NCBI GenBank assembly: GCA_035294265.1 | Contig: DATGLK010000010.1 | Location: 126,858 to 190,857, forward strand | DNA: 64,000 bases | Reading direction: 5' to 3' | Source: Candidatus Binataceae bacterium | GTDB taxonomy: Bacteria > Desulfobacterota > Binatia > Binatales > Binataceae | Shown here: piece by piece, positions 2,629 to 24,087 of the stretch | Layout: every line of letters starts with the position of its first letter | Position numbering within the stretch: position 1 is the first letter of the stretch | The notes under the pieces: generated by a model | Told to the model about the DNA's origin: nothing | What the model saw: only the letters and a program-made list of their open reading frames with translations | Database searches by the model: none | Made by a program: the position numbers and the translations under genes

Positions 2629-3306
2629 ATGACTGCCGCAACCCCATCGGAGGCCGTTCAAGAACGCGCTCGGCTCAGTCGCGGTGCCAGCGAGGAGGCG
2701 ATCTATCGAATGGTCGCCGCCGTCCTCGCGCACCGAGCCGTTAGCGGCGGAGTGCTGATCGATGTTGGGTGTGGCGCAGGCTCCCTATGGAGCCATGTTG
2801 AGCAATCCTTCGATCGCTATATCGGTGTGGACGCCGTGCGCTACGACTCTTTCCCGCCCGCCGCCACCTTTTACCCGGCGAACCTTAACGCCGGCATGCC
2901 CGCGGTTCCGAACAACCTCGGCGACGTGGTCGTTGCGGTCGAGACTATCGAGCATTTGGAGAATCCACGGGCTCTGATGCGAGAATTGGTGCGCGTAGCG
3001 AAGCCCGGTGGATGGGTGATCGTCACGACGCCCAACCAGCTTAGCCTGAACAGCATCGGCTGCCTTTTGCTCAAACATCGCTTTGCCTATTTTCAGGACG
3101 TCCACTACCCGGCCCATCTGACTGCCCTGCTGGAAATCGATCTGATACGGATAGCGCGCGAGAGCGGCCTCGCTGATCCTCGAATCGACTATAGCGGCAG
3201 CGGTCGTATCCCCTTCACCCCGTGGCATTACCCGCCGTTTCTGAGCGCCGTCTTTGCTCGTTCCTTCTCCGATAATCTCGCCCTGGTCGGCCGCAAGCCG
3301 CTCTGA
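2629..3306 (+). CDS. Class I SAM-dependent methyltransferase
   Basis: Motif I LIDVGCGAGS. Motif post-II/III region AKPGGWVIVTTPN. Confidence 0.7.
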   Translation: MTAATPSEAVQERARLSRGASEEAIYRMVAAVLAHRAVSGGVLIDVGCGAGSLWSHVEQSFDRYIGVDAVRYDSFPPAATFYPANLNAGMPAVPNNLGDVVVAVETIEHLENPRALMRELVRVAKPGGWVIVTTPNQLSLNSIGCLLLKHRFAYFQDVHYPAHLTALLEIDLIRIARESGLADPRIDYSGSGRIPFTPWHYPPFLSAVFARSFSDNLALVGRKPL

Positions 3307-3763
3307 CGTTCGCGCAACCGATCTTAGGCGTGTTTAAGCGCTGACAGCGGTTGTTCGAACCTCATGCTCTACCCCGGGCATGCAAAACAGCGGCAGCCAC
3401 CAAAGCGATCGCGCTGGTGCAGAACTTCCACACCGCGGCATCGAGGACCTGGCCCTGGCCCACAACGTCTTAGGGCTTGTGGCGCCCCACGAATCAGCTG
3501 CGATCCGGCCTACGCGCCGCGGTGGAGAGGGAGCAGCATAACGTCAGACTTATGCACGAACGCTGAGAGCGCCGACCCGATCCCGAAGCTCTCCCGAGAA
3601 GCAACAATTCCGGCGAGCTACTGAGGGACAATTCGGCCACCTTCGAGCAGGCACTGGTACGTTCCCGCTTGGCGCAGGTGTGGTGGCAATATCGGTACGC
3701 GCGGGACCGCGGCTCGAGCATTTCCAGTAAAAGCACAGTGCGAATATGGTCGCGAGAAAGTGC

Positions 3764-6700
3764 TCAGGCGTGGGTTTCGAGCACTTCGCGTGGCGCGTGA
3801 TGGCGAAATACGCGCTTGCGCTGGCTGAGTCCCCATAGCCGCGCCTTATCCAGATACAGATAAATGACCGGAGTAGTGTAAAGCGTGAGGGCTTGGCTGA
3901 ACAATAGCCCGCCAACGATCGAGATCCCAAGCGGCCGGCGCAGTTCGGATCCGGTGCCATGTCCCAGCGCCAGCGGCAGGCCGCCGAACAACGCCGCCAG
4001 CGTGGTCATCATGATGGGCCGAAAACGAAGCAGACAAGCTTGGTAAATCGCCGCCTTGGCATCCTTGCCCTCGCTACGTTCGGCCTCCAGGGCGAAGTCG
4101 ATCATGATGATCGCGTTCTTCTTGACGATTCCGATCAGCAGGATGATTCCGATCAACGCGACCACGTTGAGATCATTATGAAACAGCAACAGGGCCAGCA
4201 GCGCGCCCACGCCGGCCGAGGGTAGCGTGGAAAGAATCGTAATGGGGTGTACGTAGCTTTCGTACAGGATGCCCAGGGCGATGTATACGCTGATCAGCGC
4301 GGCCAAGATCAGCATCGGCTCGTTACTGAGCGAGGATTGAAAGGCCTGGGCGGTGCCTTGAAAACTGGCAATGACATCTCCGGGCAGATTCAGCCCTTGA
4401 GCAGCCTTATTGATCGCATCGACGGCTTGGCCCAGGGATACCCCTGGGCGCAGGTTGAACGAGATTGTGACCGCGGGAAACTGTCCCTGGTGATTGACCG
4501 CGAGCAAGGTGGAGGTGGGTACATAATGGGTGAAGGCGCTTAACGGAACCTCACCCGCGGTCGCGCTGCGCACGTAAATCTGATTGAGCGAGTCGGGGCG
4601 TTGCCAGAAGCGCGGCGCGACCTCCATGATCACGTAGTACTGGTTGAGCGCGGTATACATGGTCGAAACCGGGCGCTGACCGAAAGCATCGTAAAGCGCG
4701 TCGTCGATCTGCTGCTGGGTGATTCCCAGCCGGCCGGCGGTGCGCTTGTCCACCACCAACGTGGCGTCCAGGCCGCGGGACTGCTGGTCGCTGTTGACGT
4801 CCATCAGTTGGGGCAGGCGACGCAAGCGCGCCAGCAGCTTGGGCGCGAAAGCGTTGAGTTCGTCCAAGTCGTCACCCTGTATCGTGTATTGATACAAGGC
4901 GTTGCTGAGCCGGCCGCCTACGGTGAGATCCTGGGCCGGCCGCATATAGAAGGCACCGCCGGCGAAATGCGTCAGCTTGCGGCGAATGCGGCCCATGATC
5001 TGCTCCAAGGTAGCATGATCGCGTCTGCGCTCGATGGGCTTGAGGGTAATAAACATGCGTGCCACGTTGGTAGATCCGGCCGAGGCACCAGCCCAACCGT
5101 TGACATGCTCGACCGCGGGATCGGTTTTAATTACGTTGATCACCTTGGTCATGGTTTTGCTCAAGGCCTGGAAGGAGGTGTCCTGATCGGCCTGCAGGAC
5201 GCCGATGATGCGGCCTGTATCCTGAAGTGGGAAAAAGCCCTTGGGGATGATGTAAAACAGGTAAATGTTGAAGGCCAGGGTAGCGATGGCTACCACCAGA
5301 ATTTGACGCGGGTGGCCCAATACCCAACTCAGGCTGCGGTCGTAACCGCGCAGCACGGCCTTGAAGCCGCGCTCGCTGAGTTGATAAAGCCGGCCGTGAC
5401 GCTGCTGGCCAGGGGCGCGCAGGAGATGCGCGCACATCATGGGCGTGGCCGTCAGCGAGATAACCATCGAAAGCAAGATCGCAACTGACAGGGTAACCGC
5501 GAACTCCCGAAAGAGCCGGCCGACAATCCCGCCCATCAGGAGGATGGGGATGAAGACCGCGCACAGCGAGATGCTGATCGAGAAAACGGTAAAGCCGATA
5601 TTGCGCGCTCCCAGTAACGCCGCCTGCATAGGCCGGTACCCGTCTTCGAGGTAACGATTGATGTTCTCGACCACCACGATCGCATCATCGACCACAAAGC
5701 CGGTGGCGATGGTCAGTGCCATCAGTGACAGGTTGTCCAAGCTGTAACCCAGCAGGTACATCACGGCAAAGGTGGCGGTTAGCGAAACGGGGACCACGAT
5801 CCCAGGAATCACGGTGGCGCGCAGGCTGCGCAGAAACAGGAATACCACCAACACCACCAACATCACCGCGATGATCAGAGTGCGCTCGGTATCGCGTACC
5901 GACGCCCGGATGGTAGTGGTGCGATCGAGCACGATGGTAGTCTTGATCGCGGGTGGGATGACGGCGTCCAGCTGCGGCAGAGCGGCGCGGATCCGATCGA
6001 CGGTTTCGATGATGTTGGCTTGAGGCTGGCGGAAAATGATGATCAAGATGCCGGGTTTGCCGTCGACGATCCCCGCGTTGCGAACGTCCTGAACCGAATC
6101 GACCACCTGGGCTACGTCTGACACTCGCACCGCCGCACCGTTGTGATAAGCGATAATCAACGGTTTGTAGAGGCTGGCACGCATGAGCTGGTCATTGGCC
6201 CCCAACTCGATCGATTCCTGGTTATTGGCTAACTCGCCCTTGGGAATGTTGGCGTTGGCCGCCGCCAAAGCCGCACGGACCTGATCTAGCCCGATGCCAT
6301 AATTAGTTAGCTGGGTCGGATTGAGCTCCACCCGCACCGCCGGCAAGGCACCACCGCCCACGATGACCTGACCCACGCCCTGAATCTGCGACAGCTTCTG
6401 GGCCATGATCGAAGAGGCCAGATCGTAGATCTGGCCGCGCGTAATAGTATCGGAGGTCAACCCCAGCATCATGATCGGCGAATCCGAGGGGTTGACCTTC
6501 CGATAGGTCGGGTTTTGCGGCAGCGTGGTGGGTAACTGGCTACGCGCGGCGTTGATCGCCGCCTCGACCTCGCGCGCGGCCGCGTCGATGTCGCGGCTGA
6601 GATCAAACTGCAACACGATGGTGGTGAAGCCCAGAGTGCTGCTGGAAGTAAGCTCGGTGAGGCCGGCGATGCGGCCGAATTGGCGCTCGAGCGGAGTTGC

Positions 6701-9800: not shown

Positions 9801-10001
9801 CAGCGGCGCCGTGACGTAAGAGGCCATCACGTCAGGGCTAGCTCCGGGGTAGAAGGTCATCACCTGGATGGTGGGATAATCCACCTCAGGTAGGGCCGAG
9901 ACCGGCAGCTCGCGGTAAGCAAATAGGCCCGCAATCAGCAGACCCACCATCAGCAGTGAAGTCGCTACCGGGCGCAGAATAAAGGGGCGCGACGGACTCA
10001 T
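6876..10001 (-). CDS. mdtB: RND multidrug efflux permease, MdtB-like
   Basis: 1041-aa protein. N-terminus ([67 protein letters not shown]) is near-canonical MdtB. The stop abuts the mdtA start. Confidence 0.85.
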
Positions 10002-10007
10002 CGTGCC

Positions 10008-11399
10008 TCATGCACCGTGATGATGGCCACCCCCACGACGGTGCGAACCACCCTGCCAATTGCCTGCCGCGGGCGCGTTCCCACCGAGGGCGCCCCCCGG
10101 CGTTTGCGCGGCGAAGTTGGGGCTGCTCGCTGGGCTCGTGACTTTCGCCATCTGCACGTTGACTTTGGCCCCGGGATAGAGCCGGTCGAGATTTCCGGTA
10201 ACCACTAGCGAAGCGGCGGGCGGACCACTGCTGGCAGCGGTAAAGTCGCCCTGAGTTCCCAACACCTTGATGGTGACAACCTGGGCGGTTTTTTGCGGCG
10301 TCACTACATAAACGAAAGCGCCCTGAGAACCATGCTGCACCGCCGCCGAGGGTATCAGCAGGACATCCTGATGAGTGGCGACCAGGAGACGGACGTTAAC
10401 GAACTGATCGGGAAACAATTCATTGTGAGTATTGGCGAAGCGCGCCTTGAGCCGAATCGTGCCGGTCGTCTGATCGATCTGGTTATCCAAGGTGAGCAAT
10501 TCGCCGTCGGCCAACTTGGTCGTGAAGTCGCGATCCCAGGCCTCCACCGGCAGCGTCTCGCCCTGGCGCAGATCGCTCAGGACTTTGGGCAGGTCATCTT
10601 CGGGAATATTGAAGAGCACCGCAATCGGCTGCAATTGAGTAATGACCGCCAGGCCCTGAGTATCAGTGGCATGAATGATGTTGCCAGGGTCGATCAGGCG
10701 CAAGCCGATGCGCCCGGTCAGCGGCGCGGTAATTCGGCTGTACAGCAGATTGACCTGCGCGTTGTCCAGCATCGCCTGGTCGGCCAGCACCGTGCCCTGA
10801 TCGGCATCGGCGGTAGCCTGCTGCACATCGAGTTGCTGTTTGGGGATAACGTGACCGGCGTATAGAGCCCGGTCACGCTGCAAATCCAGTTTGGCTTCCG
10901 CCGCCGTGGCCCGGTCGCGCAGCAACTGCCCCTTGGCTTGGTCCACGGCTGCCTGGTACGGACGGGGATCGATTATCGCCAAGAGTTGCCCCGCCTTGAC
11001 CATCTGTCCTTCACGGAACGCCACTCTCATCAATTGGCCGTCCACCCGGCTCTTGACAACCACGGTTTTGAACGGCGTCACAGTACCGATTGCGCTGAGA
11101 TACTGACTGAAGGCTCCCTGCTCAATCGGGCTGGCCTCGACCGCCACCGGCGGTCGACGGCGAGTGGCGCTAGCCGCTGCCGCCGCATGTTCGGCCTGCG
11201 AACTGGGATAGAGTCGGTAGCCCACCAGCGCCGCCACCAACAGTATCGCCAGCAGCCAGAACCAACGCCAACCACTCTTGGGGGGTTGGGGTGCCGGCTG
11301 CGGCCCGGCGTATCGATTGTGATGGGGCTCCCTGGCCTCGACATTCACGTCCATTACTTGTTTACGCTCCGCTGCGCGAAACCGTTCCCAAATTGGCAA
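10008..11399 (-). CDS. mdtA: RND membrane-fusion (periplasmic adaptor) protein, MdtA-like, with Gly/His-rich C-terminal tail
   Basis: Alignable with E. coli MdtA (SRVDGQL..VKAGQLLA.IDPRPYQ..., ITAPLTGRIGL, AWDR...KLADGELLTLDNQIDQTTGTIRLKARF). One N-terminal TM segment. The start may be the internal Met (MDVNV). Confidence 0.8.
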   Translation of the reverse strand: MPIWERFRAAERKQVMDVNVEAREPHHNRYAGPQPAPQPPKSGWRWFWLLAILLVAALVGYRLYPSSQAEHAAAAASATRRRPPVAVEASPIEQGAFSQYLSAIGTVTPFKTVVVKSRVDGQLMRVAFREGQMVKAGQLLAIIDPRPYQAAVDQAKGQLLRDRATAAEAKLDLQRDRALYAGHVIPKQQLDVQQATADADQGTVLADQAMLDNAQVNLLYSRITAPLTGRIGLRLIDPGNIIHATDTQGLAVITQLQPIAVLFNIPEDDLPKVLSDLRQGETLPVEAWDRDFTTKLADGELLTLDNQIDQTTGTIRLKARFANTHNELFPDQFVNVRLLVATHQDVLLIPSAAVQHGSQGAFVYVVTPQKTAQVVTIKVLGTQGDFTAASSGPPAASLVVTGNLDRLYPGAKVNVQMAKVTSPASSPNFAAQTPGGALGGNAPAAGNWQGGSHRRGGGHHHGA

Positions 11400-16207: not shown

Positions 16208-17461
16208 TTAGACGATCATCGAGGCCGGCGGCGCCAGTGGGTCACATTGGCGCCAGTCGTAACCCTTGGGGTTGCGCAAGGTGACCGCGCGGATTTTGCT
16301 GTAATCGATCTCCTGCTCCTGTCCCAGTGCCGGCTGTCCCGCCATGTGAGCGCGAACTGCCGCCAGCATCATGCGCCGATAGCGAATCAGAGTACTGTCG
16401 GAGGAGCCCAGGTACTCGCGGCTGCGATCGGCGATCGCGCCCGGCGCTTCGGCTACCGCGAAGTCCTCGATATTGAGGCTACGCAGCCCGCTCCAATGGC
16501 CTTCTTTCATGGCCTTGCGATCCTGACCCCAGCGGTTGTCGATTCCGCCCAAGCCACTCGCGACATTGTCGGGATCGTGCGAGTAGCCGCGAATCTGAAA
16601 CAACTCTTCGGGCGTGAGCGGCTTATGCAAATCGAAGCGCCAGTACCAGATCGAGGTCCATTCGTCGTCAATCGGCACGGGAGCCAAGGTCAGGTTGGAC
16701 ACGCTGGAGTCCATCGGCACAAAGGAATAAAACGGGGCAACAACTTCGCGGATCCGAGTGTACACGGTGCCATCGAATAGATCGCGCAAAGCGGCCTCGC
16801 GAAAACCCCAAGGCTGACCGAGGACTTCGTAGGTTGGGCCGTTATTGGCCGCCGCCAGCGGGGTACCCGCCGCCTCCCGTCCAGTGCGTAACCAGTACGA
16901 ATGCAACACGCCGAGATGCGAGGAGTCGATAGTGGTTTCCATCACCTGAAACCAGTTCGAATGAAGGATCCCGCGATAAACATCGATGTGGGAGGGGGGA
17001 AGCAGATTGAACTCGAACCTGGGAAAATTAGGTGGCTGTTCACGACGGCCAAGATAAACCCAAATCGCGCCGCCGGCCTCGCGCACCGGATAATGGCGCA
17101 CCCGCACCTTGGCGGCGAATTCGGCGCGCCGCTCGGGCGGCTCGGAAGGCACTTCCACCACTTTGCCCGAGACGTCGATTTTCCAGCCGTGAAAGATGCA
17201 AGTAAGCGCGTTGTCTTCGTTGCGCGCCAGCGCCAGCGAGGTGCAGCGATGGGGGCAACCTTCGTCGAAGAAACCAACCCGGCCATCGGTCGCACGAAAA
17301 GCGATAAAGTTTTCGCCCAGCAGGCGCACTCGTGCCGGTGCGCCATCGGCCTCAAGCTTGCTGGCGAGCACGGCGGGCATCCAGTACTCGCGCAACATCT
17401 CGCCCATGGGCCGGCCTGCGCCAACCTGGGTGACAAGTTGATTGTCTGCCTGTGTCAACAT
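16208..17461 (-). CDS. Rieske non-heme iron oxygenase alpha subunit, phthalate-dioxygenase (class IA) family, paralog A
   Basis: Rieske motif CPHRCTSL-x-CIFHGW (CXH-X16-CXXH). Mononuclear Fe motif DSSHLGVLH. Start matches the phthalate dioxygenase N-terminus (LREYWMP). GAGGAAG ribosome-binding site. Confidence 0.8.
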   Translation of the reverse strand: MLTQADNQLVTQVGAGRPMGEMLREYWMPAVLASKLEADGAPARVRLLGENFIAFRATDGRVGFFDEGCPHRCTSLALARNEDNALTCIFHGWKIDVSGKVVEVPSEPPERRAEFAAKVRVRHYPVREAGGAIWVYLGRREQPPNFPRFEFNLLPPSHIDVYRGILHSNWFQVMETTIDSSHLGVLHSYWLRTGREAAGTPLAAANNGPTYEVLGQPWGFREAALRDLFDGTVYTRIREVVAPFYSFVPMDSSVSNLTLAPVPIDDEWTSIWYWRFDLHKPLTPEELFQIRGYSHDPDNVASGLGGIDNRWGQDRKAMKEGHWSGLRSLNIEDFAVAEAPGAIADRSREYLGSSDSTLIRYRRMMLAAVRAHMAGQPALGQEQEIDYSKIRAVTLRNPKGYDWRQCDPLAPPASMIV

Positions 17462-17506
17462 CCGATGCTTCCTCGAGGTGGAAACTGTCCCGGGCTAAAG
17501 CGCCGG

Positions 17507-18805
17507 CTAGTCGTTATCCAGCGACTGGGGCGGTTTAAAAGCGTCGATCTCGCGCCAGTCCTCGCCCTGCCGATTGCGCAACGCTATGGCGCGAATCGCG
17601 CCATAGTCGATAGTGCGGTCCAGGCCGCGCGCGGCCTGTCCGCTGGCGTGAGCGCGCACGGCCTCCAACATCATGCGTCGGTAGCGAATCACGGTGCTGT
17701 CAGAAGAGCCCAGATACTCACGGGTGCGATCGGCGATTGGTCCGGTGGACTCGGCCACCGCAAAGTCCTCGTGGCCCAGGGTACTTAGGCCGCTGAAGTG
17801 CCCCTCCTTCATGGCGGCCCGGTCCTGATGCCAAACCTGGTCGCGACCGCCAAGCTCGGCTGCCACGTTGTCCAGCGCCGCCGCCAGTTGCTCGTCATCC
17901 AGCGCCGCCAGCCGCTCAGTGCTCCACGGCCGGTAATTGTTGAGCAGCTCCAGCCGGGTCTGGCGAGTCAGCGGCTTGTTGAGGTCGTACCAGACGTACC
18001 ATTGGGCATGCCATTCGTCGTCGATCGGAATTAACATCACCGTCAGATTGGGTGAAGTATTTTCCATCGCCACAAAAGAATAAAAGGGCATCACCACTTC
18101 GCGGATCCGCGTATAGACCGTGCCGTCGAACAGGTCGCGCAGAGCGGCTTCGCGGAAACCATAAGGCTTCATCACATAATCGAAAGTGGGGCCGGTGTTA
18201 AAGGTTGCCAGCGCATTGCGCCCGCTGCGGCGAAGCCAATACGCGTGCAGCACACCCAAGTGGGAGGAATCGATGGTGGTTTCCATCCCCTGCAGCCAAC
18301 TGGCATGGACCACCGCTCGATGGGCCTGAGAATGGCTGGGCGGCAACTGATTGAACTCGAACTGGGGAAAGCGCGGTGGCTGCTCGTCCTGGCCCAGGTA
18401 AACCCACACCATGCCACCGGCCTCATGGACCGGATAATGGCGCACCCGCACCTTGGCGGCGAATTCGGCGCGCCGCTCAGGCGGCTCGGAAGGCACTTCC
18501 ACCACTTTGCCCGAGACGTCGATTTTCCAGCCGTGAAAGATGCAAGTAAGCGCGTTGTCTTCGTTGCGTGCCAGCGCCAGCGAGGTGCAGCGATGGGGGC
18601 AACCCTCGTCGAACATGCCGACGCGACCGTCGGTGGCGCGGAAGGCGACAAAATTCTCACCCATCAAGCGAACCCGCCGCGGCGCGCCATCAGCCACAAG
18701 CAGCCGCGAATGGACCGCGGGCATCCAAAACTCGCGCATGTAAGCGCCCATCGCGGTATCGCGACCGATGCGCGATAAGAGTTCGTTTTCTTCTCGGGTC
18801 AGCAT
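17507..18805 (-). CDS. Rieske non-heme iron oxygenase alpha subunit, phthalate-dioxygenase family, paralog B
   Basis: Same Rieske and Fe motifs as paralog A. N-terminus MLTREENELLSRIG mirrors the PDO ENELLTRVGPGT signature. Start placed at the ATG after GGGAGGG. Confidence 0.8.
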   Translation of the reverse strand: MLTREENELLSRIGRDTAMGAYMREFWMPAVHSRLLVADGAPRRVRLMGENFVAFRATDGRVGMFDEGCPHRCTSLALARNEDNALTCIFHGWKIDVSGKVVEVPSEPPERRAEFAAKVRVRHYPVHEAGGMVWVYLGQDEQPPRFPQFEFNQLPPSHSQAHRAVVHASWLQGMETTIDSSHLGVLHAYWLRRSGRNALATFNTGPTFDYVMKPYGFREAALRDLFDGTVYTRIREVVMPFYSFVAMENTSPNLTVMLIPIDDEWHAQWYVWYDLNKPLTRQTRLELLNNYRPWSTERLAALDDEQLAAALDNVAAELGGRDQVWHQDRAAMKEGHFSGLSTLGHEDFAVAESTGPIADRTREYLGSSDSTVIRYRRMMLEAVRAHASGQAARGLDRTIDYGAIRAIALRNRQGEDWREIDAFKPPQSLDND

Positions 18806-18897
18806 CTGGCTCCCTCCCACAGATTGTTCACCGAGCCCGCCAAACCCTGTCGGCCCGAGGGCTTAGATGCTCCGGCGCTTGGCAGCGGCAGTTCTGT

Positions 18898-20160
18898 TCA
18901 CTCCGCCCGATGGCGTAAAGCTAGCGTTTCGGGAGGATTGAGCGGATCGATTTCACGCCAGTCAACCCCCTTCTTAGTCCGCACCGTGACCGCGCGAATA
19001 CTGGAGAAATCAACCGTTCCGTCCAGCCCCATCGGTGGCTTGCCAGCCTGATGGTCACGCACGGCTTGCAGCATCATGCGCCGATAGCGAATCAGAGTAC
19101 TGTCGGAGGAACCCAGGTACTCACGGCTGCGATCGATCAGGATGCCCGGGGCCTCGGCGACCGCGAAGTCCTCGAAATTGAGGGTCGCCAGGCCGCTCCA
19201 ATGCCCTTCTTTCATCGCCTTGCGATCCTGGCCCCAGACCTGCTCGCGGCCGGGCATATCTGCCGCGATGTTGCTGGGGTCGGGATACTGGCGATGGTAG
19301 CGCATGAAGTCTTCGGCGATCGGCGCCTCGCTCTGATAGCGAATGTACCACTGCGCGTGCCAGTCGTCATCGATCGGGATTAGGCAGATGGCTAGGCGCG
19401 GCACGAAGGAGTCCATCGGCACGAAGGAATAGAAGGGCGCCACCACCTCGCGAATGCGCATATAAACGCTACCGTCGAACAGATCGCGCGCAGCCACTTC
19501 GCGGAAGCCGTAGGACTTCATCCATTGATCGTACACCGGTCCATTATTGGCGGTGGCCAGCGCGCCGCCGGAGTTGCTGCGGTTCTTAAGCCAATAGGAA
19601 TGCAGCACTCCCAAGTGGGAGGAATCGATAGTAGTCTCCAAGCCCTGCACCCAGTTGCTGTGCACTACCGCGCGATGAATCGCGCAATGGGTGGGAGGCA
19701 GGTTGGTAAATTCAAATTCGGGGAAGGCCGGGGCGGGATCGCGTTTGCCCAGGTATACCCAGACCATGCCGCCACTTTCGTGCACCGGGTAATGGCGCAC
19801 CCGCACCTTGGCGGCAAACTCGGCGCGCCGCTCGGGTGGCTCGGAAGGCACCTCGACCACTTTGCCCGAGACGTCGATCTTCCAGCCGTGAAAGATGCAG
19901 GTAAGCGCGTTGTCTTCGTTACGCGCCAGCGCCAGCGAGGTACAGCGATGGGGACAGCCTTCGTCGAAGAAACCCACGCGGCCGTCAGTGGCGCGAAAAC
20001 AAACGAAGTTCTCGCCCATCAAGCGCACCCGCAGCGGCGCGCCGTCGGCTTCCAGCTGCGAGGTGAGCGCGGCCGGCATCCAATACTCGCGCAACAATTC
20101 GCCCATCGGCGTTCCCACGCCGACTCGACACAGCAATTCGTTGTCTTCACGCGTCAGCAT
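18898..20160 (-). CDS. Rieske non-heme iron oxygenase alpha subunit, phthalate-dioxygenase family, paralog C
   Basis: Same motifs. The longest ORF extends to 20301, but the ATG at 20160 (MLTREDNELL, RBS GTGGAGGA) matches the other paralog starts. Confidence 0.8.
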   Translation of the reverse strand: MLTREDNELLCRVGVGTPMGELLREYWMPAALTSQLEADGAPLRVRLMGENFVCFRATDGRVGFFDEGCPHRCTSLALARNEDNALTCIFHGWKIDVSGKVVEVPSEPPERRAEFAAKVRVRHYPVHESGGMVWVYLGKRDPAPAFPEFEFTNLPPTHCAIHRAVVHSNWVQGLETTIDSSHLGVLHSYWLKNRSNSGGALATANNGPVYDQWMKSYGFREVAARDLFDGSVYMRIREVVAPFYSFVPMDSFVPRLAICLIPIDDDWHAQWYIRYQSEAPIAEDFMRYHRQYPDPSNIAADMPGREQVWGQDRKAMKEGHWSGLATLNFEDFAVAEAPGILIDRSREYLGSSDSTLIRYRRMMLQAVRDHQAGKPPMGLDGTVDFSSIRAVTVRTKKGVDWREIDPLNPPETLALRHRAE

Positions 20161-20246
20161 CGCCAAGTCCTCCACTCGCTGCAGCCCGGAGTATCCGCCG
20201 GGCGCAAAATTCGACGTTTCGCTACATTGGCCGCCTGGCCCTCGCG

Positions 20247-21506
20247 TCAGCCTAAGAAGGGCAATGAGGGGGGCGGATTGAACGGATCGACGTCCTTCCA
20301 ATCCATATCTTTGGGGGCGCGCAGCGTGATCGCGCGAATCTTGCCAAAATCCACGGCTTGCTCGCGATGATACACCGGCTTGCCCTGCTGATGGGCACGG
20401 ACCGCGGCCAGCAGGAGGCGGCGCAAGCGAATCAACGTGCTGTCACTGCTGCCCAAGTACTCACGGGTACGATCCATGATCACGCCCGGGGCCTCACCCA
20501 CCGCGAAGTCTTCATAGTTGAGGGTTTGGAACCCGCTCCAATGCCCTTCCTTCATCGCCGCGCGATCCTGGCCCCAATTGTCTTCGCGATGGCGAAAGTT
20601 GGCGGCGACGTTATCGCGTGTGCCCGTCCCGCCCATCATGCGCAGACGCTGCTCTTCGCTCAGCGGCTTGTCGGGATAAAACCAGATGTACCATTGCCAA
20701 TGCCACTCGTCGTCCACCGGCACCACGATGATGGTCAGATGCGGCATGAAGTGGTCCATCGGCACGAACGAGAAAAAGGGCAGCATCACTTCACGGATGC
20801 GCTGATAAACGGTGCCGTCGAACAGGTCACGCAGAGCCGCCTCGCGGAAGCCGTAGGGTTTGGACAGATATTCGTAGGTTGGGCCGTTATTCATACTGGC
20901 CATCGCGCTGCCCGAGGTGGTGGTCATCTTTTTCAGCCAGTAGGCATGCAACACGCCCAGATGGGAGGAATCGATGGTGGTTTCCAGCCCTTGCAGCCAA
21001 TTGCTGTGCACCAAGGCGGGAAAGGGCTCGACGTTCTCGCGCGCGATGGTGTTGAGCTCGAAATCCAAAAACCGCGGCGGCTGCTCCTCCTTACCCAGAT
21101 AGACCCACACCATGCCGCCCGCCTCGCGCACGGGATAATGGCGCACCCGCACCTTGGCCGCGAATTCGACCCGTCGCTCGGGCGGCTCGGAGGGCACCTC
21201 GACCACTTTGCCCGAGACGTCCATCTTCCAGCCGTGGAAAATACACGTCAGGGCATTGTCTTCATTGCGCGCCAGCGCCAGCGAAGTGCAGCGATGGGGG
21301 CAACCTTCATCGAAGAATCCCACCCGTCCATCGGTGGAACGAAAGGCGACGAAGTTTTCGCCCATCAAGCGTACCCGCCGCGGCGCACCGTCGGCCTCCA
21401 AACTTTCGCTGCGCAACGCCGGCATCCAGAATTCGCGCATGTAGTCGCCCATCGGGCTACCCGGACCGACCCGAACCAGCAACTCATTTTCTTCGTGTGT
21501 GAGCAC
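20247..21506 (-). CDS. Rieske non-heme iron oxygenase alpha subunit, phthalate-dioxygenase family, paralog D (GTG start)
   Basis: Same motifs (MLTHEENELLVRVGPGSPMG). GTG start preceded by GAGGAGGG. First gene of the co-directional array. Confidence 0.8.
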   Translation of the reverse strand: MLTHEENELLVRVGPGSPMGDYMREFWMPALRSESLEADGAPRRVRLMGENFVAFRSTDGRVGFFDEGCPHRCTSLALARNEDNALTCIFHGWKMDVSGKVVEVPSEPPERRVEFAAKVRVRHYPVREAGGMVWVYLGKEEQPPRFLDFELNTIARENVEPFPALVHSNWLQGLETTIDSSHLGVLHAYWLKKMTTTSGSAMASMNNGPTYEYLSKPYGFREAALRDLFDGTVYQRIREVMLPFFSFVPMDHFMPHLTIIVVPVDDEWHWQWYIWFYPDKPLSEEQRLRMMGGTGTRDNVAANFRHREDNWGQDRAAMKEGHWSGFQTLNYEDFAVGEAPGVIMDRTREYLGSSDSTLIRLRRLLLAAVRAHQQGKPVYHREQAVDFGKIRAITLRAPKDMDWKDVDPFNPPPSLPFLG

Positions 21507-21846: not shown

Positions 21847-21906
21847 GCAATTCGGCTAGCGCTCGAAGTGCGCATAAACGCTCCGAGCGAGAATCGAGGG
21901 TTTGGA

Positions 21907-23211
21907 ATGAAGATAGTTACTATCATAGCAGTCTCGGCCGCGACGCTGGCCCTGCTGGTGACGAGTCCGTCGGTGGGACGATGGGGGCGCGGACTGGAGG
22001 CGGCTTATGCCCAAAGCGGCAGCGATGCCGACCATCCGGCACCCAGCGCCGGCGGACAACGCCGGCCGGTGCGCCACACCTTGGCCGAACTGGGCTCGCC
22101 GCGCACGGTGTACACGATGCCCGCGCAGTTCACCAAAATTCTTGCCACCATTCCCGGCGGTCCGATAGCGCCCTGCTCCGAGCTGTCCGACCCCTATCCC
22201 GAGTTCAACGGTATCGCGCTGGATCCCAAGGCCGGGATCGTGGTCATGAGCGACACCAATCTGAAAAGCGCGCTGATTTATTCAACCGACGTCAAGGCCA
22301 ACCCCTCGGATCCCGACGTCACGCCGTACAAGGCCTGGGTCAAAGGGCCTGACACCTTTCTTTCCTTCGCCGCGGGTGTGGCAGTCGATCCGGTGCGGCA
22401 CGAATTCTACACTACTGAAAACGACGTCGGTGACGACGTTGCGGCCTTCCCATACAGCGCCAGCGGCGATTACGCCTCGCGGGTGCTAGCCGTGCCTCAC
22501 GGCTCCTACGGAATCGCGATCAGCCAACATTACAAGCAGATTGCGGTGGCGATTCAGCACAACGCCGAGATCATCTTTTATCGCGTCCAAGCCAAGGGCG
22601 CCGACCGGCCCCTGCGCTCAATTCGGGGCCCGCGCACCGGCCTGGCCGATCCGCATGGAGTGGTCTGGGACGAGCCCAATCGCGAAATCTTCGTCTCCAA
22701 CTATGGTAACTGGAACCAGGGCTACTGGGATCCCGATTACATGGGAGGCGGGCACTATTATCCTCCCTCCATTCGAGTCTTTCGTGACGACGATGAGGGC
22801 GACGCCACGCCGGTGCGAGTCATCAGCGGCCCCAAGACTCAATTCAACTGGCCCACTGGAATCGCGGTTGATGACAGCCACGGCGAGCTGTTCGTGGCCA
22901 ACGAGGCGGGCAATCAAGTGCTGGTTTTCCCGCGCAACGCTAACGGCGACGTGGCGCCGATTCGGGTGCTAGGCGGACCGCACACCGCTATTCGCCAGCC
23001 CATGGGGGTAGCTTACGACCCGGTCCACGATCAGATCTGGGTGGCTAACTTCGGCCATAACGCCGAGGTCTTCGATCGCACTCAAGAGGGTGACGTCGAG
23101 CCCCGCAAGATCGTGCGCAACGCGCCCGAGGGCAGCCCGGCAGCGGGCTTCGGCAATCCGATGGCGCTAGGCTACGACTCCAAGCGCGACCAACTGCTGG
23201 TACCCAATTGA
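21907..23211 (+). CDS. Secreted beta-propeller repeat protein (NHL/YVTN-like ~45-aa repeats), N-terminal portion ending at an in-frame TGA
   Basis: ATG after GAGGG. Signal peptide MKIVTIIAVSAATLALLVTSPSVG. Repeated units of the form ..GDVAPIRVLGGPHT...P.GIAVD...ELFVAN.. Confidence 0.6.
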   Translation: MKIVTIIAVSAATLALLVTSPSVGRWGRGLEAAYAQSGSDADHPAPSAGGQRRPVRHTLAELGSPRTVYTMPAQFTKILATIPGGPIAPCSELSDPYPEFNGIALDPKAGIVVMSDTNLKSALIYSTDVKANPSDPDVTPYKAWVKGPDTFLSFAAGVAVDPVRHEFYTTENDVGDDVAAFPYSASGDYASRVLAVPHGSYGIAISQHYKQIAVAIQHNAEIIFYRVQAKGADRPLRSIRGPRTGLADPHGVVWDEPNREIFVSNYGNWNQGYWDPDYMGGGHYYPPSIRVFRDDDEGDATPVRVISGPKTQFNWPTGIAVDDSHGELFVANEAGNQVLVFPRNANGDVAPIRVLGGPHTAIRQPMGVAYDPVHDQIWVANFGHNAEVFDRTQEGDVEPRKIVRNAPEGSPAAGFGNPMALGYDSKRDQLLVPN

Positions 23212-24087
23212 GTGAGTGATCCCCGCATTGCGACGTTTGCCCGGGTGGCAAGCGGCAACATTCCAGCCAAGCGGATCATTGAGGGACAAAACACCAAACT
23301 AACCCGCGTCGCTCACGGGATTACCTATGACCCGGTCCACGATCTGATTATTGCCACGGAACCGCTGGCTGCGTCAATTGTGTTTTTTAGGGGCGGCGCG
23401 CATGGCGATGTGCCGCCGGTGCGGGTAATTCAGGGCAACAAAACGCTGATTCACTCGCCCTACGAACCCTCGGTGGACAATCAACACAACGAGCTGTGGA
23501 TCGCCGATATCACTAGCGGGGCCCTGCGGGTCTATCCGCTGGAGGACAACGGCAACATCGCGCCGCTGCGCAACATCCAGGGACCCAAGACCCAGCTCTT
23601 CAGCATCACTGGAGTGGCAGTCGACCCGGTCCACGATCTGGTAGTGGCAGCCGGGCTAAACCGGCAGTATCGGCCCTGCATTTTCATTTTCCGTCGCACC
23701 GACAACGGTGATGTGGCGCCGCTGCGGGTAATTAGCGGCCCGACCACGGGGCTGGAATACATCTGGCATGTGCAGGTGGCAGGCCAGCGCATTTTCGCTA
23801 CCGCTTCCAACTTCTACTACATCCCACCCTACGATCCGGGTGGCCACGAGCCGCGCAAGGATTGCACCGGACCGCCGCTGCCCTTCCCCGGGCCGCTGGG
23901 CTTTATCGGGGTATGGAACGAGAGCGATAACGGCGACGTGGCGCCGCGGGCGATCATTCGCGGGGCGCAGACCGATTTGCTCCATCCGGTGGGATTAGTG
24001 CTTGATCCCGCTCATGGCCAGGTCTTCGCCAGCGACAGCGTGCGCAACGGCGTGTTCGGCTTTCTGGTCCCCAACTTTTTTAAATAG
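23212..24087 (+). CDS. Beta-propeller repeat protein, C-terminal portion (same frame, continues the repeat register after the TGA at 23209-23211)
   Basis: Immediately downstream of the TGA and in the same frame. Carries the same repeat family (GDVPPVRVIQGNKT..., GNIAPLRNIQGPKTQLFSITGVAVDPVHDLVVA, GDVAPLRVISGPTTG). No own signal peptide and no convincing ribosome-binding site. Likely one gene split by a nonsense codon or sequencing error. Confidence 0.5.
   Translation: MSDPRIATFARVASGNIPAKRIIEGQNTKLTRVAHGITYDPVHDLIIATEPLAASIVFFRGGAHGDVPPVRVIQGNKTLIHSPYEPSVDNQHNELWIADITSGALRVYPLEDNGNIAPLRNIQGPKTQLFSITGVAVDPVHDLVVAAGLNRQYRPCIFIFRRTDNGDVAPLRVISGPTTGLEYIWHVQVAGQRIFATASNFYYIPPYDPGGHEPRKDCTGPPLPFPGPLGFIGVWNESDNGDVAPRAIIRGAQTDLLHPVGLVLDPAHGQVFASDSVRNGVFGFLVPNFFK

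Follow-up and report, generated by a model that had tools for sequence, protein, structure and literature searches.

Gene organization at the locus

We examined a stretch of 64,000 nucleotides from a Candidatus Binataceae bacterium (assembly GCA_035294265.1, contig DATGLK010000010.1, positions 126,858 to 190,857), referred to below as the window. It carries a gene for a predicted exported beta-propeller protein that is interrupted by a single in-frame TGA. A preliminary description had stated that the two open reading frames (ORFs) concerned, 21907-23211 and 23212-24087, share one frame and are separated only by this codon. The sequence and its translation bore this out: from the ATG at 21907 to the TAG at 24085-24087 there is one frame, the sole interruption is the TGA at 23209-23211 (context CTG CTG GTA CCC AAT TGA GTG AGT GAT CCC), and the frame holds 726 sense codons with the internal TGA. 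The interpretation developed here is that the TGA almost certainly encodes selenocysteine (Sec) by means of a downstream RNA hairpin of the selenocysteine insertion sequence (SECIS) type, and that 21907-24087 is one gene. We put the probability of this reading at about 0.93. The features are as follows, in window coordinates.

21896-21900, plus strand: Shine-Dalgarno-like GAGGG, 6 nt 5' of the ATG at 21907, as judged by reading the sequence
21907-24087, plus strand: predicted selenoprotein gene, complete, in a single frame; 726 residues with Sec as residue 435; true stop TAG at 24085-24087
21907-22011, plus strand: signal-peptide-like N-terminus (MKIVTIIAVSAATLALLV...AYA/Q), read from the translation
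22141-23106 (approximate limits), plus strand: N-terminal six-bladed NHL beta-propeller
23107-24084 (approximate limits), plus strand: C-terminal six-bladed NHL-like beta-propeller with the putative Sec in its first blade, according to the structure model of a homolog and the alignments
23209-23211, plus strand: putative Sec-encoding UGA (residue 435, motif LLVPN-U-VSDPR), on the basis of cysteine in homologs and conservation of the TGA
23228-23258, plus strand: candidate bacterial SECIS-type hairpin, on the basis of folding, covariation, codon bias and loss in most cysteine lineages

The public record for the first half is an NCBI protein of 434 aa (P0001, "hypothetical protein", from a Candidatus Binataceae metagenome-assembled genome, MAG), which is 100% identical, has the same start and ends at the TGA 23209-23211. 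The fused translation, on the other hand, aligns over its full length to homologs of 650-795 aa that have cysteine (Cys) in place of the stop. The second half had been described as lacking both a signal peptide and a ribosome-binding site, and our reading of the sequence agrees: no Shine-Dalgarno-like sequence lies 5' of the GTG at 23212, and the segment after the TGA has no hydrophobic N-terminus. Reassignment of the genetic code was considered and ruled out. Of 32 long ORFs, 16 end in TGA, which is therefore an ordinary stop codon in this organism.

Within 11 nt of the proposed Sec codon, the sequence TGAGTGAGTGA at 23209-23219 has a TGA in each of the three forward frames. The +1-frame stop (TGAGTGA or TGAGTAA) is kept in most relatives, although not in all. 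The arrangement may be a coincidence.

Homologs carry cysteine or end at the TGA position

The 120 best homologs were aligned with the fused protein as the query. They fell into two groups. Full-length proteins of 576-795 aa, covering about 88% of the query, accounted for 71 of the 120, and all of them have Cys at the column of the TGA. The other 49 are shorter (402-475 aa, with up to 76% identity to the query), and the last residue of each is the one just before that column. No state other than Cys or truncation was found there among the 120 sequences. The co-occurrence of Cys homologs with homologs truncated at one and the same residue is the hallmark by which selenoprotein families are usually recognised. 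The preliminary description had placed the stop at a position normally occupied by Glu or Asp. This holds for the internal repeats of the protein, where a Glu is found, but not for its orthologs and paralogs, in which the residue is Cys in 71 of 71 full-length sequences.

The motif of the Cys forms is LVPN-C-V(S/A/T)QPRI. In the homolog alignments Cys435 is the only conserved Cys column of the mature protein, and the alignment of the 120 homologs contains neither a CxxU/UxxC motif nor a second conserved Cys. Four residues outside the repeat motif that lie near the Cys/Sec in sequence, R427, P439, R467 and H470, are invariant. Near the N-terminus, at alignment column 160, 82% of the Cys forms have a conserved Cys that could belong to a lipoprotein lipobox; the window protein is gapped there.

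Database names of the family members are limited to "hypothetical protein" or an automatic YncE label. The Cys homologs, which come from Acidobacteriota, Binataceae and Nitrososphaerota and are named "hypothetical protein" or "DNA-binding beta-propeller fold protein YncE", share the architecture of the window protein (34-48% identity over about 88% of the length) and have an invariant Cys at the position of the Sec. They differ in having a TGC or TGT codon and, mostly, no hairpin; none has an assigned function. Under the NCBI locus-tag prefix of P0001 (VKV28_) there are, besides P0001 itself, two homologs truncated at this same residue and one homolog of the Cys form. The contigs encoding one VKV28_ homolog, P0006, carry two tandem TGA-containing genes, each with a hairpin, while an exact look-up of P0002 and P0040, which bear the same prefix, gave no contig.

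The TGA and the downstream frame are conserved in several phyla

We then turned to genomic DNA. A scan of one genome per GTDB species, with a narrow alignment as the query, returned 75 loci. The selection of loci favoured forms that contain a stop, but neither the identity of that stop as TGA nor the continuation of the frame beyond it was forced by the selection. At the homologous codon of 89 sites in these loci we counted TGA 88 times and TGC once, while TAA or TAG occurred at 0 of 89. Apart from three loci, the frame stays open for 286-327 codons after the TGA, with a conserved sequence. Recurrence of the same codon at 88 sites in 75 independent loci, with a conserved in-frame continuation, is far beyond chance.

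The loci come from Binataceae, from MAGs labelled Proteobacteria or Deltaproteobacteria, and from Methylomirabilota, Verrucomicrobiia, Planctomycetaceae and others. Many are acidobacterial (Bryobacteraceae, Solibacteraceae, Terriglobia, Blastocatellia and Thermoanaerobaculia). Between the window and eleven Binataceae-type relatives, the segment after the TGA is 51-66% identical at the amino-acid level, and third codon positions differ about twice as often as positions 1 and 2. The third-position excess, together with the identity of the protein, indicates that the segment after the TGA is translated and under purifying selection.

Many acidobacterial loci hold two divergent copies about 2.1 kb apart. 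Many genomes have two divergent Sec-type copies in tandem, examples being L012 (4972 and 7078), L017, L024, L031, L050, L051, L054, L055, L058, L063, L065, L067, L070, L072 and L085 (9017 and 11345). In Acidobacteriota such a tandem consists of one copy of the VSVPRILVF type and one of the VTQPRIAVF type. The divergence of the tandem copies suggests that their products form a heteromeric pair.

A SECIS-type hairpin follows the TGA

The preliminary description had advised a search for a SECIS-like stem-loop 3' of the TGA, and such a structure was found. The upper stem pairs 23234-23241 with 23247-23254 around the apical loop CGGGU (23242-23246), and a lower stem pairs 23228-23231 with 23255-23258. 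The loop lies 30 nt from the UGA, and the upper stem begins 22 nt after it. The core has a minimum free energy (MFE) of -11.9 kcal/mol (z -2.4), or -14.0 with the lower stem; cores of 23-34 nt compared with shuffled sequence gave z values of -1.7 to -2.4. The published criteria for a bacterial SECIS (bSECIS) are a loop of 3-9 nt, a stem of 4-16 bp, a G in the first two loop positions, a spacing of 16-37 nt and an MFE of at most -7.5 (PMC13188914). The window hairpin falls within all of these limits, with the loop CGGGU, 8 bp, 30 nt and -11.9 kcal/mol.

A hairpin at +25 to +45, counted from the U of the UGA, is common to all Sec-type genes and has the consensus YRUUYGCC-A-GGN-U-GGCRAAYG. The loop of the relatives is A-GGN-U, closed by A-U. 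Pairing in the 9-bp helix reaches 94.4% over 87 distinct sequences, against 33-52% when the 3' partner is slid by 1-3 columns. Compensatory changes were found at pair 30:42 (U-A 58, C-G 26, U-G 3, unpaired 0) and at pair 27:45 (G-C 49, A-U 16, G-U 4), and they sit at synonymous positions. At the level of codons, those for Phe and the second Ala covary: TTT-GCA occurs 58 times, TTC-GCG 26 times and TTT-GCG 3 times, while TTC-GCA does not occur.

Codon choice within the hairpin is equally skewed. In 73 of 86 genes the loop Gs come from an AGG codon for Arg, and in the rest from CGG or CGT, although AGG makes up 4.9% of the Arg codons elsewhere in the same genes; CGC, the preferred Arg codon (51%), is used at this position in 0 of 86. 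The Ala codon that closes the stem is GCC in 85 of 86 genes, compared to a background of 35%. Such biases are beyond the reach of protein coding, and therefore indicate that the RNA structure itself is under selection.

Cysteine lineages as natural controls

Six Cys-form lineages for which DNA was retrieved were compared at the hairpin region. Five of the six retain only 5-6 of the 9 hairpin pairs. In one of these five, a lineage with TGC (L053:8057 and L076), the peptide after the Cys is identical to that of several Sec forms, yet the hairpin region carries four synonymous changes. Since the hairpin has been lost in a Cys form with the same peptide, it follows the TGA and not the protein sequence. 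By contrast, the TGT-containing gene at 6107 of L077, which encodes P0027 (a cluster of 193 member sequences), has a perfect 9/9 hairpin with an AGG loop codon. It probably represents a very recent conversion of TGA to TGT that has left a "fossil" SECIS.

Both forms can be found close together. L053 has a Sec-type and a Cys-type copy on one contig. The gene for the Cys form P0003 (8001-10109 in L082/L083) occupies the same position as the tandem Sec-type genes of the related contig L085 (7691-12238), upstream of the genes for RlmN, PNP_UDP_1, PfkB and UDP-glucose dehydrogenase. This comparison suggests an exchange of Sec and Cys between positional orthologs.

Genes for selenocysteine synthesis

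In one locus from a Terriglobia MAG (L026), genes for Sec synthesis lie directly upstream of a TGA-containing homolog: selA (TIGR00474, 577 bits, cut-off 268) on the minus strand and selD (NF002098, 511 bits, cut-off 299) on the plus strand, together spanning 3254-5798. The encoded SelD is of the Cys type (GGGCGCK). A tblastn search across the loci, with SelA and SelD of L026 and with approximate SelD and SelB sequences as queries, detected Sec-machinery genes only in L026, and ARAGORN detected no tRNA-Sec in the window or in 60 loci.

Protein fold and position of the proposed selenocysteine

The fused protein matches the NHL repeats of Pfam (PF01436) with 45.7 bits (cut-off 20), and this match above threshold, together with the six-bladed propeller fold, places it among the NHL-repeat proteins. 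As a structure model we used that of the Cys homolog P0010. Its first ~86 residues form an N-terminal helix followed by a low-confidence linker. The Cys/Sec position lies in a tight turn between the strands LLVPN and RIAxFA of blade 7. The preliminary description had noted that the repeat register runs straight through the stop, and the P0010 model agrees with this, as it puts the residue in a turn between two strands of a single blade.

A Foldseek search against the PDB returned generic tandem WD/YWTD propellers only, and a sequence search of the PDB returned only the NHL domains of TRIM and Brat proteins. The six-bladed NHL domains of TRIM2/TRIM71, NHLRC2, SOQ1 and peptidyl-alpha-hydroxyglycine alpha-amidating lyase show 14-20% sequence identity. 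Unlike these proteins, the window protein is bacterial, has tandem propellers and looks exported. None of the solved NHL relatives has the LVPN-C/U-V motif and none is a selenoprotein, and the solved structures offer no function to transfer.

Proposed Sec insertion and the alternative explanations

We propose the following model. The product would be an exported protein of 726 residues with two six-bladed NHL propellers and a single invariant Sec in the turn of blade 7. Recoding of the UGA would be directed by the stem-loop in the coding sequence, with its stem of 8-9 bp and its small G-rich apical loop. On the pattern of bacterial SECIS elements that have been characterised, the hairpin would recruit SelB with Sec-tRNA(Sec) to a ribosome paused at the UGA. 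The selenol may then serve as a catalytic residue or a metal ligand and exchange electrons with a cytochrome, possibly during the turnover of aromatic compounds.

Several observations weigh against this model. ARAGORN and tblastn found no selA, selB, selD or tRNA-Sec gene in the 64-kb window; the window is the part of this genome that was surveyed, and the capacity of the organism to decode Sec is strongly implied rather than directly seen. When folded in a context of 76 nt, the window hairpin is no more stable than shuffled sequence (z -0.45), and it matched no Rfam SECIS family at either the gathering or a permissive threshold. The case for the hairpin is a comparative one and does not rest on the 76-nt fold or on Rfam. 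As regards function, the window has no cytochrome gene adjacent to the predicted selenoprotein gene, and the functional proposal leans on the context of a minority of loci (a cytochrome gene in 23 of ~84, Rieske/LigXa genes in 16).

The preliminary description had offered three explanations for the TGA: a recent nonsense mutation, a sequencing or assembly error, and programmed readthrough of the stop codon. The last of these came closest, as the codon does appear to be recoded; the recoding is, however, best explained not as generic readthrough but as insertion of Sec directed by a SECIS hairpin. In readthrough without Sec, a near-cognate tRNA for Trp or Cys would decode the UGA and the hairpin would merely slow termination. 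The inserted amino acid is not decidable from the sequence alone, and the missing Sec machinery in the window would be accounted for. Such a mechanism is nevertheless very unlikely, given that the 71 full-length homologs all have Cys rather than any other residue, that the interrupting stop is always TGA, that the hairpin has the geometry and loop of a SelB-dependent bSECIS, and that selA and selD adjoin a homolog in L026.

It could also be argued that two separate genes meet at this point, with termination at the TGA, re-initiation at the adjacent GTG and assembly of the two halves after translation. A GTG does follow the TGA directly, and two ORFs are what gene callers report. This next codon nonetheless encodes a Val that is conserved in the continuous Cys forms, and in L010 it is ATC, which is no usual start. 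The first half looks exported, while the second has neither signal peptide nor ribosome-binding site, and the break would fall within one propeller blade of the P0010 model. Two genes would moreover tolerate TAA or TAG, which were found at none of the 89 sites, and the conserved hairpin would be left unexplained. We regard this arrangement as highly improbable. As for a pseudogene or an error of sequencing or assembly, only the presence of the stop codon speaks for them, and their probability is negligible. The same TGA recurs at 88 sites in dozens of independent assemblies from several phyla, other VKV28_-prefix proteins show the same feature, and the frame after the TGA is unbroken and subject to purifying selection. 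A pseudogene would be expected to show a sporadic stop and relaxed downstream constraint, and neither was observed. Sec insertion at the TGA is thus the explanation that we retain.

Gene neighbourhood and possible role

Neighbouring ORFs were clustered across ~84 loci. One cluster is a family of diheme cytochromes c of 150-220 aa, whose two CxxCH motifs are separated by exactly 62 residues and which have no match in Pfam. It was present in 23 loci and is absent from the window. In 14 of the 23 its gene follows the NHL gene in the same orientation, no more than ~100 nt from the approximate end of that gene. Examples are L012 (8020-8694), L037 (8068-8691), L039 (8112-8714) and L009 (5207-5785). 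Rieske/LigXa_C oxygenase genes were found near homologs in 16 loci. In the window itself, four tandem paralogs of the Rieske [2Fe-2S]/LigXa_C type (417, 437, 467 and 419 aa) occupy 16208-21506 on the minus strand, head-to-head with the predicted selenoprotein gene. Other recurring neighbours encode a class II aldolase, a UbiD-type decarboxylase, Amidohydro_2, a cupin-domain protein, TonB-dependent receptors and transporters.

A lone Sec or Cys in a protein of this kind implies that it may carry out selenol- or thiol-based catalysis, or bind a metal, outside the cytoplasm. Because a diheme cytochrome c gene adjoins homologs in other genomes, the protein could be an extracytoplasmic redox enzyme that exchanges electrons with a c-type cytochrome, a proposal drawn from gene context that we make with low confidence. 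The Rieske/LigXa, class II aldolase, UbiD and amidohydrolase neighbours hint at a link to the turnover of aromatic compounds, likewise drawn from gene context and held with low confidence.

In L080 (11052-15120, minus strand), the gene for a Cys-form paralog of 731 aa appears to share an operon with those for an unknown protein of 162 aa, SCO1/SenC, a PCuAC-type copper chaperone (PF04314) and a monoheme cytochrome c. A link to copper chaperones was considered but found no support elsewhere, as SCO1/SenC and PCuAC were seen in L080 only and did not recur.

Other in-frame TGA junctions were screened across the window, and no further credible candidate emerged. The junction between a 463-aa and a 1041-aa ORF (10001-10010, minus strand; TGA at 10008-10010) was rejected as a recoding site: an ATG lies two codons after the stop, as expected of ordinary adjacent genes. 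A ~1058-aa ORF follows the 1041-aa ORF at this junction on the minus strand, and the whole looks like an ordinary operon.

Relation to known selenoproteins and significance

Formate dehydrogenase H of E. coli (fdhF) offers a well-characterised parallel. The two genes have in common an in-frame UGA, a stem-loop in the coding sequence just downstream and a small apical loop that contains G. Further shared traits of fdhF-type recoding are a spacing of UGA and loop within 16-37 nt and a Cys in the homologs that are not selenoproteins (criteria of PMC13188914). The proteins, however, are unrelated, with NHL propellers in one case and a molybdopterin oxidoreductase in the other. The hairpin sequence in the window is specific to its own family and matches no Rfam model, and a role of SelB is assigned to it by analogy.

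The prokaryotic selenoproteins known so far are mostly enzymes with a thioredoxin fold or a metal cofactor. A review of May 2026 lists 119 families and subfamilies of prokaryotic selenoproteins, together with domain identifiers (Zhang et al., 2026; PMC13188914 Table 1). The catalogued families resemble the present one in having a Sec/Cys pair, a UGA and a bSECIS, and many of them are likewise truncated or split by gene callers. The window protein differs from them in that it lacks a motif of the CxxU/UxxC type, has one conserved Cys/Sec and has a fold that is not thioredoxin-like. None of the 119 entries in that table is of the NHL, beta-propeller, YncE or lactonase type. The families of Haft and Tolstoy (2025) are included in the table, with an NCBIfam accession or a Pfam domain identifier, and none of these is an NHL or propeller family; BSepDB rests on previously reported families. 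A search of NCBIfam (June 2026) matched no selenoprotein model and gave only sub-threshold hits to ScyF and 6-phosphogluconolactonase. In the accessible literature, that is, excluding the subscription-only part, we found nothing relevant on NHL or propeller selenoproteins or on Sec in Binatia/Binatota.

The proposed mechanism is that of the well-known bacterial Sec-UGA/bSECIS system, whereas the family itself seems not to have been described before in the selenoprotein literature within reach. On balance, we lean towards the view that this is an undescribed and widespread family and, by the domain annotations of the catalogue, the first beta-propeller selenoprotein. Its members would be exported double-NHL enzymes found in Binatia and Acidobacteriota of soils and in other phyla. 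A genome would often hold several paralogs or tandem pairs of them, coupled to a dedicated diheme cytochrome c, and their lone selenol would serve extracytoplasmic redox chemistry, possibly on lignin-derived aromatics.

Such a family has practical as well as biological consequences. Gene callers split its members into two "hypothetical" ORFs, and one correct family model would mend many records. The Sec forms, the Cys forms without a hairpin and the TGT form with its "fossil" hairpin make up a natural series in which the exchange of Sec and Cys can be followed. A selenoprotein that is a large exported beta-propeller, with a single Sec and no Cys to pair with it, would broaden the range of folds and chemistries that use selenium. 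The findings also point to the use of Sec in Binatia and in many soil Acidobacteriota, which is not discussed in the searchable selenoprotein literature. If the links to cytochrome c and to aromatic catabolism are true, the supply of selenium could influence a step of soil carbon turnover that takes place outside the cytoplasm.

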